A DNA stretch of 51,529 bases from a virus (lineage: Duplodnaviria > Heunggongvirae > Uroviricota > Caudoviricetes): IMG/VR virus record IMGVR_UViG_2617270963_000008. The stretch is one strand, 5' to 3'. Positions within the stretch are counted from its first letter, which is position 1. The number at the start of each line of letters is the position of its first letter. Below are positions 18,001-30,000 of the stretch, piece after piece. The position numbers are program-made.

Positions 18001-21000
18001 TAATGCCTTTCGATCAGCGAATTAATGCGCTTAACGATTTTATGAAGCACTTTTCGCCAGATATCGCGCTGGCATTGTTGGATGAGATCAACGCATTAGA
18101 GGAAACGCGTATCAACGATGTTTGCCGTATTGCGGAACTAACAAAACAACTGGAGTTGGCAAAATCAAAACTCAACGAGCAGCGTGAGTATTACGAGGGC
18201 GTTATCTCGGATGGAAGTAAGCGCATAGCAGAGTTAGAAAGTGATTCTCAGGCACAAAAGTTAGTTGAAGCAATCATTGTTGCGATAGAAAACGAACAGG
18301 AACGTCTTTTTGATGAAGATTACCTAATGGATTCGAAAGAATGCATTGACGTAATTCGTGAAGAAGTAAAGCGATGGAATGATTCCCGCGCCGCTGGCAT
18401 TCGCATCAAAGGAGAGTGAGATGACCACATCGCATTCTGCAATTACCCAGAAAAAAGCCTTCCACATACTCGAACGATTAGAGGCGCTTGCTACGGAGGA
18501 GGAGATATCCCCGGAGAAACTGGTTGAGTTCAGCCGTGTGATATTGCGTCGCAAGAACGATATGGAGCGGCTGACATCTGGCGCTCCATCCTTATCAGTC
18601 AGGCGAACACTTTGTTGCAGCTTCTGCAACAAATCCCAGTACGCCGTCAAAAAGTTAATTGCTGGGAACGCCGTTTTCATCTGCGACGAGTGTGTGGATG
18701 TGTGCAACAGAATTATCCGGGGAGAGAAAGAGGGATCAGCATGAAATTTTCCAAATTTTCTGAGTTGGTGAATCGTATTTTGTCCAACAACCACAGCCAT
18801 CGTCGCGATATGGATGTAACGATCGTTGTTCATTCGCCTGGTCGCATCGGTTCAACACCATCAGTTGAGGTTCAGTCAATTCAGGCGGGTTTTGATTGGG
18901 ATGCCGGGAAAGTGATGATTTTTCCAGCACAGCCACTGACCACGCTAACACCGGAGCAGGTTGCTGATATCACTGATAGTGTGCGCAAAGGTCAGTCTTG
19001 GCACGCGTATCAGGAATACAAGAAGCATAAAGAGCAGTTGGAAAAATTGTCGATGGAGTTGGAAGCCGCTAAACAGCGGGAAAAAGATCTGTTTATGGAA
19101 AATGTTCGACTTAAGTCAGGTATAGCCGGTCTGATACACCTCGGTATTCGATATGCGGATGTTGAGGTCATGAAAATTGCTGGAGATGCCCAGCTTTCTA
19201 CTCCATGCACTGACAGCATCATAAACAGCATTGCAGCAGGCATTTTCACCAAAGAGGGGGCAGCACGATGAGAACACTAGAGGTTCGCGCTGAAGACGTA
19301 ATCCCTGGTGATGTGCTCATAACATCTAAAGGTCAACAATGTGCGGTTAAATCTTTTTGGATGGAAAATGACAAAGTGACTCTGTTCGGTACGGATGGTT
19401 CCGAAACTGATTATGACTACGACGAATTGCTTGTTATTGAGAGAGCTGCCTAATGACCACCTTTACCAAAGAACAGTTAATCTCCCATGCACGCGAAAGC
19501 GTTAGTTATCTGGAAAACTTGAAAGGACGTGTTAGCAAAGAAGGTGCGGACTGCAAAGTTGTTATTGAGATGGTTGCACGAGATCTAAAACTGGCACGGA
19601 TTGCGCTGGCATCGCTGGAAGCAGATCCAGTTAAACGAGTTAACTCAGATCAGATGCGCCGAGTCTGCTTAGAAGCTAATCGCCATTTAGATAAATATGA
19701 CGCGATGGCGAAAGAGGTAAATAAGTTGCTTGGACGCATCGCCCCGCCAGCGCCGGTAGTGCCGGAAGAAGCAACTCCGGAAAACGTAGAAATGCTCTCT
19801 GGCTATGTTTCCACGTACAAATTAACCGATAGCGAGCGCGATATTGCTGCCGAAATATGGAACGCCTGCCGCGCCGCCATGCTTCAGTCCGGAAACTTTC
19901 GGGAAAATAAAGATTCGTCAACCAATAATTTTCGGAAAATCCCGGAAGCGTCAACCAGCTCTCCGGTAACTCCGGATGGTTGGATAAGCTGTAGTGATCG
20001 AATGCCAGAAATGGGAGAGCGACAATACTATGTGTTAGCAGCTGACTTTAAAAACAACTACCCACCAAGCATCCCCAACACTCAGGTCGGCGTATATGGC
20101 GACTGGTTTAATGATGGCAATCCCACTTGGGATGACGGTGATGGCGAAGACCTGCATCTCAAAGAAGTAACCCACTGGATGCCGCTACCAGAACCGCCGA
20201 AGGAGGTACGCCAATGACCTAGCCTGAAGCATTTGCAATTGTAGTGGCTGCCATTTCGATCGCACTGATTGTTTTTGCGATTTGCCGCTGGGGGTAAAAT
20301 AGTTCACCTGCATGGAGATTTGATGCCGGGGAATTGTGGGGGAGCATTCAAACCTCTCCCCTTCCCGGTTAAAGACTCCATTGCTTTGCGGTCAGAGAGA
20401 TACATCAGCTTCATCAGCTTAATGAAACGCATAGATCCGCCATGCTTTTTCAGCAAATACGCTGCCATTTGCGCAACTTTTTCTTCATTAAACATAAATC
20501 GGCTCTCTGTCTCACATGAAATACTCTTTCTGACTATATGTTAATAGCTCCGGTTATTACAGGTTAATGTGTGTTTATTTCTTAATCAGCCCCGCACTTC
20601 CGTACGGGGCCATTTCTGTTAATCCACTCCCACTTTTTTGTTGTACTCGCGGTTAAACCGATCCACGGCAACCTTCATATCCCGCTCTACCGATTTCACC
20701 ATCGCCGCCTGCTGCGCCAGACTGAGAGAACTGTCGGCATAAATGGCATCGCGCTGTTTGCGCAAATCCTTCAGTCTCTTCCGGGTATCCTGCATAAGCC
20801 CGTTCATCAACAATTTTCCGTTGTTCTCGTCAATGAACGCCGTTCTTTCTGCACCGGTCAGACTCTTCAGCTCTGCGTGATACTGCGCAACCTCTGTCAT
20901 CCGGTCGTACATCTTCTGCTGGTCTGCATACGGCATCACCTCACCCGAAATTTTCCCCAGGAAGGGCACCTGCTGTTCCGGTATATCAATACCATTCAGC

Positions 21001-27000: not shown

Positions 27001-30000
27001 AACGCAGGATTATCCATTTCAACGGCATACTGATTCTCGCCTTTCTTCACTACGGACGGTTTCAGGCCGGTGGCGCTGGCATTGCGGAAAACGTCGCTCC
27101 CCAGAGCACTTTTTTCATCCGTGAAATAACGGTTGTCCGGACGCACCTTTTCAATGCGTTCTGCTGGTCTGGACGCACCACTCTCGTTAATTTCAATACG
27201 AACTTCATCCGGATCGCGGAACCGCACCGTCGGGTAAATACTCCCGTCGCCATCATCCGCATTTTCCGGCTGTGGCTGTGCCTCCGGTCTGGCCTCCCGC
27301 TGAGGGCGAAGCACATCACGTATTGCCTGTAACTGCTGCTCTTCAGTATCAGTACGCCCTTCCTTCTGGCTGAGTTTTCGGTATTCCTCAAGCAGTTCAG
27401 GGCGCGGCTTCGCCTTCAGCTCATCCATCACCGCCTGTCGCTTCGCCTGTTCATCCAGTTCATTCAACAGCTGGCTGGCGGCTTCCCGGCGATGAACGGC
27501 AGACGTGTCTCCCTCATGTGCCATATCCGCATCAGCATACTGTTCCAGAAGCTGCTCGCGATTCATCCCCTGCATAGATTCACGATGCTGTGCCACCGGA
27601 TCAACCGGTTCGGGTTGCGGAGCCGATTCGTCCTGAGGAACGCTTTCAGCCTCACGCATGGCTGCTTCATCTGCCGCCTGACGTTTTCCACGATATCCGG
27701 CAGCCGCACCGAATGGTGCCCCCATTGCAGCACCAAGGGCTGCACCTTCGATCGTTGCGTCAGCCACGCCCTCCCACGGTGACACATCCATTCCGGCGGT
27801 CTCACGCAATGCCGTGTTTTCCTGATAGCGTGAATAGCCACCCTGCGCCGCATTAATCGTCCCCTGTTCCGTGGCATTTCTGACAATGCCGCTTTTAACG
27901 GTCTTCGCCGTGCCCCGCATCGCCAGATTAAGCAACTGAGCATCGCCCAGTTTTGCCGCCATGGCATTCACAGCCAGCAATTCAGGATCGGTTGCCAGTT
28001 GCGCACGCACCTCATCGGCAACACGCTCTTTTGCCAGGTCCATTTTCTGGCGGTCAGTAAGCTGCGCGTGCTGCGGATCTGCATCAATTGACAAAAAGGT
28101 CTGCTGAAATTTCGGTGACTTCGCCAGCTCAGAATAATCCGCGTTAAGAACAGCATCTGCCGCTGCCATTGCACTCCGCCCTTGCGCACTGACAGTGGAA
28201 TGGGTGATCAGGCCTGCCTGGAAAAAATCCGGCATTTTTTTATCGACAGCTTCGGCTGCCAGTGCTGTGGCTCTTTCCGGCTGCATCCCTGCCGCGATGT
28301 ATTTTTTCTCCAGCCCGGCGGTCAGCACTTTTCGCAGAGTGACATCACCCAGCTTTTTAGTCACACCGCCTGCAACCATATCCGGTACAAGCGCACCAAT
28401 CAGGTTAACCCCTTTCGCTACCCAGACCGCTGAATCATCATATCCTTCAGTCATCGGTGTATTCAGCGCCCGCTGCGCCCCCGGCGACATCTTGCCAGTC
28501 AGCCATTCATCCGAGGCTTTAGCGCCGCCACTGACTGCCTTGCCTGTGACCTTCAGACCTTTACCGACAGTATCAGTAACCGCATTTTTTCCATCAGGCA
28601 GAGTGTCGATGACCTCATCCGCCCCCTTGCTGCCACCGACAAAAATATCCTGAACAGTTGCTACTCCCGGCAGCCCCATACGGCTGAACTCATTTAAAAT
28701 ACGTGCCCCTGTTTTTACCGGGCTCTGAATCATCGCATCACCGAGTCCACGGGCCATTTCCCCTGTCCCCCGGACGGACTGGGCGACACCTTTCCCCATA
28801 GTTGGCAATACATCGCCCAGGCTGAACGACGTGCTGTTGTCCTTCCAGCGATTGGGATCGGAGAAAAACACATCATAGCTGTCAGTCTCTCCCGGCTGCT
28901 GAATGTTCAGGCTGTTGCGGCTCTGGTTGCCAAATTGCGCTTCAGGGCGCTGTTCATCGGAATAAGCCATACAGACTCCATAAAAAAACCCGGCACAATG
29001 ACCGGGTATCAGGAAATAGTATTAACGGGAATGGTGAATTACTGCGCGTAATTCTGTTTCAGACCACGGATAAACTCAGATGCAGAGGCCGCGCTATCAT
29101 CCCTGGCCTGTTCCCCCCTGGCCTTTTGAATACGGAGAAAATTCGCATACCCGTGTTCCAGCAATTTCTGATTCTGAGGCTCCAGCATTTCTGGCTGACG
29201 GGAGGCCACTTCTCTGGCAAATGCCTGCTTATCCGGATCATCACCCGCCCAACTGGTAATCCCTTGTTGAATTTTTTGCTGCTGAATTTGCTGCTGATAC
29301 TGCGGCAGTCCCATCGAAGCATAATATTGCGTCACTGCTCCCTGCGCATCACCGCCGTCCTGTGCAACCTTTATCGCTACCTGGCTGGCTCCTTTCTGAA
29401 GTTGATCCGCAGAAAGTCCCTGCTGCTTCGGCGTGAAATAGCCGAAATTTTTCGAAATTTCCGCGAATTTACTGCGATCCCTGACAAGCTCAACAGCCTT
29501 ATCAACAGGCACCGCCAGCACGGTTTGATCATCAGGATGTGCACTGCCGTATTCCGTAACGGGTTTATGTGCTGTAGAGCCATCACTGTATGTGAGATCA
29601 AGGCCGATAAGTATGTACCCTTCCTGCTGTGCCGGTACTATACTGCCAATCCTGGCCTCTTTTATCGTCTTTTTCCCGGTTGAATCGGGCATGCCAATAC
29701 GCTGTTGCAGTTCCGGGCCAAACACCCCGGAAAGGACATCAAGATTCTCCGGCGTATTAAGTGAAGCGATAGCCCTGTCTGGCTTGTCATCAAAGATTTT
29801 TTGCAGGTTGTTCACGGCCTGACCCGCTTTCGCTACATAGCCATCATTCGCCATCAGCCTCAGCGGATTACCCTCTGACAACTGGCCGTAAAGACGCATT
29901 GCTGCATCCCGATCGCCAGCATCCACAGCCTTTCCAAGCGCCGCCATCACAGGCTGATCGCGCGCCAGCATATCGTTATACTCAAGCCGTCGCTGGTTGT

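Follow-up and report, generated by a model that had tools for sequence, protein, structure and literature searches.

What does a short-tailed phage make with a single gene that takes up about one seventh of its genome, and how might the product serve it in the first minutes of infection? The question is raised by the virus record IMGVR_UViG_2617270963_000008, a stretch of 51,529 nucleotides (nt) analysed here as a whole (the window), in which one giant coding sequence (CDS) on the minus strand (20619..28970, 8352 nt from its ATG start, 16.2% of the window and ~14% of the phage genome) encodes a protein of 2783 amino acids (aa) with a calculated mass of 307 kDa. A previous reading made without database searches (the sequence-only reading) had delimited this uninterrupted open reading frame (ORF) of ~8.35 kb, 2783 aa and ~16% of the window, and had proposed that its product is a polyvalent protein co-injected with the DNA; both statements hold up. 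We suggest, and consider likely, that its product is the giant protein carried inside the virion (an “ejection” or polyvalent protein) by the short-tailed Shiga toxin (Stx) phages of the 933W/Sp5/phi24B lineage, and that it acts through the mechanism outlined below. The reading as an injected polyvalent protein is supported, but it was published earlier for near-identical orthologs, as were the family, essentiality and virion location of the protein, and the core finding hence adds nothing new. The value to the specialist lies in a sharper domain map, in a layout of fixed ends and variable cargo, and in a C-terminal module (C-module) that has no relative in the PDB library searched; the unexplored fold of this 950-aa C-module and the fixed-ends architecture are what remains of interest. 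Stx-converting phages spread Shiga toxin genes, their entry into cells is poorly understood, and the giant gene is essential and probably combines the entry machinery with the first effectors delivered.

The giant gene is matched in 186 records of Stx/Shigella phages at 90-96% nucleotide identity, all of them Stx-converting or related Escherichia/Shigella podoviruses and among them 933W, VT2-Sakai/Sp5, Stx2-86 and TL-2011c. RefSeq names the product “LPD5 domain-containing protein”, and the 933W ortholog appears in older annotation as “L0121-region protein”. Compared over its full length, and from the same ATG, with VT2-Sakai orf71 (Sp5 ORF80, ECs1242), the protein shows 91% identity; phi24B gp47 and Stx2-86 gp35 are further orthologs. 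These three genes and the 933W ortholog occupy the same place after a 421-aa gene and behind the same upstream hairpin, and the Sp5, phi24B and Stx2-86 proteins differ from the present one by allelic mosaicism only. The protein carries several unrelated domains, LPD-type ones included, on one very large polypeptide, and its gene sits among virion and late genes: the tail-fibre, lom and virion-protein genes precede it in the late operon, of which it is the last large member. Phage polyvalent proteins and LPD domains were defined, with a zincin-like metallopeptidase (MPTase) as hub domain, by Iyer 2017; the present protein shares with them the zincin MPTase hub, the PBECR domain, LPD domains and the location in a virion cluster, and we find no defining difference. 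The sequence-only reading had the gene close the late region, which is accurate for the large late genes, although a 63-aa ORF follows on the same strand.

The evidence that carries this identification comes from the literature on orthologs, namely the Sp5 and phi24B alleles rather than the present one. In a 2026 preprint on phi24B, which has a T=9 capsid, gp47 (2811 aa) is abundant in the virion proteome and absent from the cryo-EM map and model, and the authors proposed that it is an ejection protein, favouring a transperiplasmic conduit. The supplement of that preprint lists 10,962 peptide-spectrum matches (PSMs) for gp47; the major capsid protein has 17,998 and the portal 2,226, so that gp47 ranks second in abundance by this measure in purified virions. 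Its PSM peak (2,188) lies in the top gel slice, with a tail through the lower slices. From PSM density we obtain ~23-35 copies of gp47 per virion, a crude figure that means “many more than one” and nothing finer. The packaged protein, put roughly at ten copies or more, does not belong to the ordered capsid, portal or tail. In Sp5, deletion of ORF80 (2,793 aa) abolished both plaque formation and lysogenisation and was complemented, while DNase-protected DNA and head morphology were normal, so that the gene is essential, but not for DNA packaging (Mondal 2016). Deletion of ORF79, the neighbouring gene, behaved in the same way: essential, with normal packaging (Mondal 2016). The gene is also induction-dependent, as clone CM7, which maps to phi24B CDS 49148-57571 (the giant gene), rises on induction (Riley 2012). 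Presence in the virion, dispensability for DNA packaging and a need for infectivity, the hallmarks of an ejection protein, are thereby found in the phi24B and Sp5 orthologs taken together, and the T7 gp14/15/16 and P22 gp7/16/20 ejection proteins belong to the same phenotype class. The claim that the protein is of the DNA-co-injected type is borne out to this extent.

The domain map of the protein is as follows, from N- to C-terminus.

27561..28970, minus strand: N-module (aa 1-470), moderately Gly/Ala-rich
27693..27746, minus strand: glycine zipper GAALGAAMGAPFGAAAGY (aa 409-426), which closes the N-module
25851..27560, minus strand: linker (aa 471-1040), by composition acidic, Pro-rich and of low complexity
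25401..25832, minus strand: LPD5 (aa 1047-1190), Pfam PF18799, E 4.5e-43, 147 bits
24681..25418, minus strand: zincin-like metallopeptidase 1 (aa ~1185-1430), with H1253, HEWFH, D1281, E1365 and E1372
25137..25151, minus strand: HEWFH (aa 1274-1278), invariant, the predicted catalytic and zinc-binding motif of zincin 1
24171..24563, minus strand: zincin-like domain 2 (aa ~1470-1600), with HEIIH at aa 1541-1545 (nt 24336-24350)
23484..23753, minus strand: MuF_C/PBECR, a BECR-fold RNase-like domain (aa 1740-1829), Pfam PF18819, 64 bits (cut-off 27.6), E 1.4e-17
20622..23468, minus strand: C-module (aa 1835-2783), conserved as one unit of ~950 aa
20958-21575, minus strand: Pfam LPD38 (aa 2466-2671), 162 bits, within the C-module
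aa 2435-2457, minus strand: hydrophobic helix, within the C-module

The Pfam matches (LPD5, LPD1, MuF_C and LPD38) all lie far above cut-offs of ~27 bits. Pfam scans, among them scans of overlapping 450-aa windows of the protein, a check that had been proposed with windows of 300 aa, found these domains and not tail-fibre or tape-measure repeats alone; collagen or fibre, Walker A/B and methyltransferase motifs were not found in the protein. A tail fibre or tape measure was accordingly rejected, there being no run of four or more GXY repeats and no fibre or tape-measure family in Pfam or PHROG. The Gly/Ala-rich N-terminal region of ~450 aa that had been described proves to be moderate, with a Gly+Ala fraction of 0.24-0.32 at aa 101-500, and does not extend to aa 1-100 (0.17). 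At the end of the N-module the pattern GxxxGxxxGxxGG is kept in the alignment of N-module homologues, and we regard this glycine zipper as a candidate membrane-inserting segment. No Pfam or other domain match falls in the linker (aa 471-1040), and the LPD5 domain that follows it is listed as possibly enzymatic (Iyer 2017).

The zincin motif LAHEWFHSLD, with HEWFH at nt 25137-25151, is present exactly where it had been reported; a second HExxH motif (HEIIH, aa 1541) had been missed. In the first domain, seven residues (H1253, H1274, E1275, H1278, D1281, E1365 and E1372) show no variation among 33 homologues, even at ~30% identity, and the last two sit in a conserved motif ExxARxFExY, in which either may be the third zinc ligand. 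An HExxH helix followed downstream by a Glu-bearing helix is the gluzincin signature, with the third ligand predicted on the downstream helix, and the motif matches a phage-type MPTase variant in which a conserved His precedes HExxH and an Asp lies three residues beyond it (Iyer 2017). The Pfam LPD1 match (aa 1351-1430, 81 bits) spans the C-terminal helices of zincin 1 and, because the Glu-bearing helix falls inside the Pfam LPD1 model, we take LPD1 to be part of the peptidase domain. An AlphaFold2 (AF2) model of aa 1041-1850 has a predicted local distance difference test (pLDDT) score of 67 overall and is good over its first ~400 residues. Foldseek with the zincin 1 region gave no significant match; zincins make up most of the top 50 structure matches for this domain, which include PPEP-2/3, neprilysin, M32 carboxypeptidases, SprT, Wss1, ArdC, IrrE and thermolysin, and we count the zincin fold among the results of the present analysis. 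The two predicted zincin domains, with LPD1 belonging to the first, sharpen the domain map.

The third predicted enzymatic domain calls for a correction. The 2026 phi24B preprint refers to MuF-C as a metallopeptidase domain that might degrade peptidoglycan. According to Iyer 2017, MuF_C is PBECR, an RNase domain of the BECR fold, and LPD38 occurs in phage-type proteins only. Following Pfam and Iyer 2017, we therefore read MuF_C as a predicted RNase-like domain and not as a metallopeptidase, and would place the HExxH domains in the LPD5-LPD1 interval and at aa 1470-1600. At least 80% of 24 non-redundant homologues keep the residues H1742, H1791 and S1806 of MuF_C/PBECR; the MuF_C part of the AF2 model has a pLDDT below 50.

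How, then, are these domains put together in related proteins? An exhaustive phmmer search of 1.84 billion representatives with the N-module found 101 clusters; 64 of these represent proteins of 1500-4665 aa, which in every case carry the module close to their N-terminus. In 30 of these 64 giants the C-module is also present by profile, always ending 1-13 residues from the C-terminus, and zincin 2 is commoner among them than zincin 1 (49/64 vs 20/64). Homologues of the C-module cover 93-100% of it down to 33% identity, and are either gene products of ~900-1030 aa or fusions to differing N-terminal domains (methyltransferase, ART, GGDEF, InPase, LPD3). A tblastn search located the C-module in Stx phages and, at ~40% identity, in 103 Vibrio phages; it also occurs in podoviruses of Ralstonia (Heva, Claudette, YL4) and of Burkholderia (DC1, BcepMigl). 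The genomes listed all measure ~57-63 kb, and Bacillus phage Pavlov has a partial match. The AF2 model of the C-module is confident (pLDDT 81, predicted TM-score 0.77) and mostly helical with a beta insert, and no fold relative was detectable in the PDB library searched. The N-module has no PDB relative by sequence profile, and PDB sequence searches with the whole protein and with the profiles of the three regions brought up nothing beyond low-complexity noise (huntingtin polyQ, for example).

This analysis shows that a conserved N-module and a ~950-aa C-module bracket a variable cargo, which in the present protein consists of LPD5, the two zincin-type domains and the PBECR RNase-like domain. 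The same contrast can be seen among Stx phages: both ends of the protein are at least 93% identical to Sp5 ORF80, and aa ~800-1200 (window ~25370-26570, the end of the linker and LPD5) show 59-76% identity to Sp5 and 97-100% to Stx2-86 gp35. Because this segment is low against Sp5 and near-identical to Stx2-86, the cargo part is a mosaic between Stx phage alleles, and the pattern of identities suggests a recombinational exchange of the LPD5 cargo region between them. We offer the following only tentatively, as an idea that could well turn out to be wrong: the N- and C-modules would serve together as a delivery chassis that can be used again and again, restricted to a single lineage of podoviruses with genomes of ~57-63 kb, such that any insert between them would be packaged, threaded through the tail and delivered. 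That lineage would comprise the Stx, Bcep22-like, Ralstonia Heva/Claudette-type and Vibrio phages, with T=9 geometry shown for phi24B only. If true, phages could swap cargo (zincins, RNases, ARTs, GGDEF, methylases) as defence pressure shifts, and the mosaic LPD5 block in Stx alleles would be a trace of cargo exchange.

We propose that the end modules would give encapsidation and passage through the portal-tail channel, by analogy with the virion RNA polymerase (vRNAP) of phage N4, and that they may also contribute to a trans-envelope conduit after release of the tail needle, the glycine zipper and the hydrophobic helix at aa 2435-2457 possibly inserting into membranes. The zincins would cleave the polyprotein into pieces that act on their own, or cleave host targets, or do both, and the targets of the RNase-like and LPD5 domains would be molecules of the host or of its defences, acted upon within the first minutes of an infection.

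Several observations weigh against this proposal or limit its reach. Delivery with the DNA is probable, what is shown being the presence of the phi24B ortholog in the virion; the protease and RNase activities are likewise predictions from conserved residues. Hydrophobic and glycine-zipper segments are few and weak (one weak transmembrane-like helix and two or three glycine-zipper patterns only), and a role in a membrane conduit is therefore speculative. Particles of the Sp5 ORF80 deletion lacked binding of anti-tail-fibre antibody (Mondal 2016), an observation that points to a part in attaching or stabilising the tail, for which a pure cargo model makes no provision, and suggests a further structural role at the portal vertex. 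Finally, the stand-alone C-module genes that we inspected lie away from any clear virion cluster: one is in a degraded prophage, and the others are found among early or recombination genes, with no virion genes in the ~20 kb examined. Some of the stand-alone proteins may be fragments, and these contexts, listed here against the proposal, speak by themselves neither for nor against a virion role.

The tail phenotype is where the competing explanations start. It is decidedly unlikely, in our view, that the protein is purely a structural ejection-conduit or head-plug protein whose HExxH and PBECR domains are vestigial or serve assembly-time processing only, without any host effector role. The ORF80 deletion particles, with their full heads and undetectable tail fibre, do suggest that the protein has a structural or assembly function at the portal vertex, conservation is highest in the N- and C-modules, and a conduit is what the phi24B authors favour; however, invariance of the catalytic-type residues of zincin 1 at ~30% identity and retention of the PBECR His and Ser would be unexpected in vestigial domains, and the ART, GGDEF, methyltransferase and InPase cargo swapped into related giants is hard to read as structural. 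The same phenotype, together with a COG1483 match, led Mondal 2016 to suggest a tail-assembly ATPase, that is, a non-virion, ATP-using factor of the AAA+ type. We give this suggestion almost no credence: a regular-expression search found no Walker A/B motif anywhere in the protein, Pfam scans found no ATPase family even in overlapping 450-aa windows at E values up to 5, and virion proteomics already contradicts it, the ortholog being highly abundant in purified virions.

Annotation points in yet another direction, toward an antirestriction protein of the DarB type, which would methylate the incoming DNA or coat it. The PHROG family phrog_10089, labelled “DarB-like antirestriction”, matches aa 2344-2671, and the Burkholderia (Bcep22-like) and Ralstonia relatives of the C-module bear the DarB-like label, but because the match is confined to the shared C-module/LPD38 the label reflects that module only. 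The giant protein has neither a (D/N/S)PP(Y/F/W) methyltransferase motif nor helicase Walker motifs, and profiles of the N-module, central region and C-module reach at most 2.8 bits against P1 DarB, DarA and DdrB, which makes a DarB-type function very improbable. The three P1 proteins are likewise internal to the head and delivered with the DNA, and DdrB has a C-terminal HExxH; they show no homology to the present protein, whose sequence is without methylase or helicase motifs.

For the internal, injected protein that we favour, the working analogue is N4 gp50 (3500 aa), the vRNAP, which is packaged in the T=9 head of a podovirus and injected with the DNA, and which also has an HExxH MPTase region (HELVH at aa 2228). 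In N4 vRNAP the C-terminal region is needed for encapsidation and the N-terminal region for injection. There is no detectable homology between gp50 and any module of the present protein, which lacks the RNA polymerase domain, and sequence comparison accordingly indicates an analogue and not a homologue. A reading of the giant protein as an N4-type vRNAP was rejected, with no RNA polymerase family in Pfam scans and profiles at or below 2.8 bits against N4 vRNAP, gp51 and gp53. Closer relatives are provided by the Bcep22-like podoviruses, which have portal and capsid proteins homologous to those of 933W. Their morphogenesis module ends with a 4515-aa “DarB-like” protein, which comes after a virion protein of 510 aa and is virion-associated by mass spectrometry. 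The giants of Bcep22/JC1 (4515-4600 aa), of Ralstonia GP4/Heva-type phages and of Vibrio podoviruses have the C-module in common with the present protein, at 27-40% identity over 83-99% of its length; they differ in their cargo domains and lengths and have extra domains that the present protein lacks.

Upstream of the giant gene lies a second element of interest.

28982..29007, minus strand: hairpin and T run (ACCCGGT-CATTGT-GCCGGGT at 29007..28988, T7 run to 28982)
28976..28979, minus strand: GGAG ribosome-binding site, 5 nt before the ATG, invariant in the alignment

The sequence-only reading had placed a hairpin followed by U7 at 28982-29007, 11 nt before the start codon, and these coordinates are exact. 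The hairpin has a 7-bp stem (5 G-C) and a 6-nt loop, in a 68-nt gap between the TAA of the upstream gene (29041-29039) and the ATG at 28970, with 11 nt (aTGGAGtctgt) between the T run and that ATG; this is the geometry of a rho-independent terminator. It is kept in 933W-type phages, Stx2-86, phi191 and the more distant PhiR12_3, where the end of the upstream gene has diverged. Pairing is standard in 35 of 35 pair cells over five distinct sequences. At two pairs both partners have been replaced, one such case being G-C to A-U in PhiR12_3, and the relatives retain the T run or have a longer one. The structure thus appears to be maintained in evolution, on a small sample of five distinct sequences in which windows slid along the alignment are 29-54% paired and 66 of 500 shuffles do as well as the hairpin. 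Terminator-like consensus sites are not enriched in 20-38 kb (19 found, 16.4 +/- 4.0 expected), and the local fold energy is unremarkable (z = -0.93): the case for the importance of the hairpin is its conservation and not its mere presence. An extended fold (28971-29020), in which UUCC upstream of the hairpin pairs with GGAG and encloses the stem in the minimum-free-energy structure, is no better than shuffles (z = -0.93); its flank differs in PhiR12_3, and the fold is probably due to chance.

We posit that the hairpin is most likely a conserved intrinsic terminator, as predicted from its structure, that insulates the giant gene from lysogenic moron transcription. In the lysogen, it would stop transcripts from moron promoters of the distal late region from entering the giant gene, and during lytic growth a Q-modified RNA polymerase would read through it. 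The lom gene, upstream, is expressed equally in lysogens and induced cells, that is, constitutively (Riley 2012). Late transcription in Stx phages starts from PR' and requires Q antitermination. In lambda, intrinsic terminators throughout the late operon fail to stop the Q-modified polymerase. It had been suggested that the terminator could throttle read-through into a costly gene; as stated, this finds no support, since the hairpin lies between two co-expressed virion-protein genes (phi24B virions contain gp48 as well as gp47, and Sp5 needs ORF79 as well as ORF80) in an operon transcribed under Q antitermination. The same idea, put as a partial terminator that attenuates late transcription and leaves less giant mRNA than upstream mRNA, can draw on the canonical geometry and conservation of the hairpin and on a crude PSM density in phi24B virions that is ~1.6-fold higher for gp48 than for gp47. 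Such PSM ratios are too crude to show it, however, late transcription is Q-antiterminated, and the giant protein is among the most abundant virion proteins; we hold attenuation to be unlikely. Insulation fits better because the giant gene is induction-dependent, lom is constitutive, late transcription is Q-antiterminated and the flanking genes are co-expressed. What counts against insulation is that a terminator lying right after lom (32585..32565) could by itself insulate lom, and a role of the hairpin in stabilising mRNA 3' ends is an alternative. The hairpin at 32585..32565, directly after lom, and another at 31723..31704, after a 133-aa gene, are further strong terminator-like hairpins on the minus strand, both in intergenic gaps, and a gene followed by a terminator, as seen after lom and after the 133-aa gene, is the typical moron layout.

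The genes on either side of the giant gene are these.

20304..20495, minus strand: 63-aa ORF downstream of the giant gene (phrog_3658), hypothetical in RefSeq genomes and in VT2-Sakai (orf72)
29039..30304, minus strand: upstream 421-aa gene (phrog_601), ortholog of Sp5 ORF79 and phi24B gp48
30315-30566, minus strand: 83-aa ORF with a glycine-zipper, class II bacteriocin-like C-terminus (Pfam Gly-zipper_YMGG, E 4.6e-6)

Four genes at 29039-31681 on the minus strand, of 218, 150, 83 and 421 aa, correspond to phi24B gp51, gp50, gp49 and gp48. Of these products, gp48 (1634 PSMs), gp50 and gp51 were detected in phi24B virions and are not discussed as parts of the cryo-EM model, and they may be further internal or ejection proteins. 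The 421-aa protein has no Pfam match and no known domain. As an alternative, the product of the 83-aa ORF is a candidate small membrane-active ejection helper; its phi24B ortholog has only 13 PSMs and was put aside as a contaminant (2026 phi24B preprint). A conserved two-gene cassette was considered and rejected, as the 465-aa gene upstream of a distant stand-alone C-module protein is unlike the 421-aa protein of the window (E 0.43).

The window holds a 933W/Sp5/phi24B-type Stx prophage inserted in E. coli ynfG, and ~16 kb of it (rspAB to ynfF) belongs to the E. coli chromosome and not to phage. By comparison with the closest E. coli chromosome, ~5.8-16 kb of the window holds the host genes rspB to ynfF; a host-chromosome reading of 16.3-20.2 kb was rejected, phage early-left DNA being found there. 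The early-left genes antA, Ea22-like and DUF551 (plus strand) converge on the 3' end of the giant gene. At the junction between prophage and host in ynfG (window ~15950-20620), no integrase or att site lies between the early-left genes and the giant gene, which here abuts the early-left genes, whereas in Stx2-86 int follows it; either attP lies elsewhere in the present phage or the prophage is rearranged. The end of a second prophage occupies 1505-5651 of the window (plus strand), adjoining rspB. One of its genes encodes an 835-aa protein that carries a 3'-5' exonuclease domain, and another a tyrosine integrase of 431 aa, which is intact here but split by an IS66-family element in the related genome NZ_AP045820.

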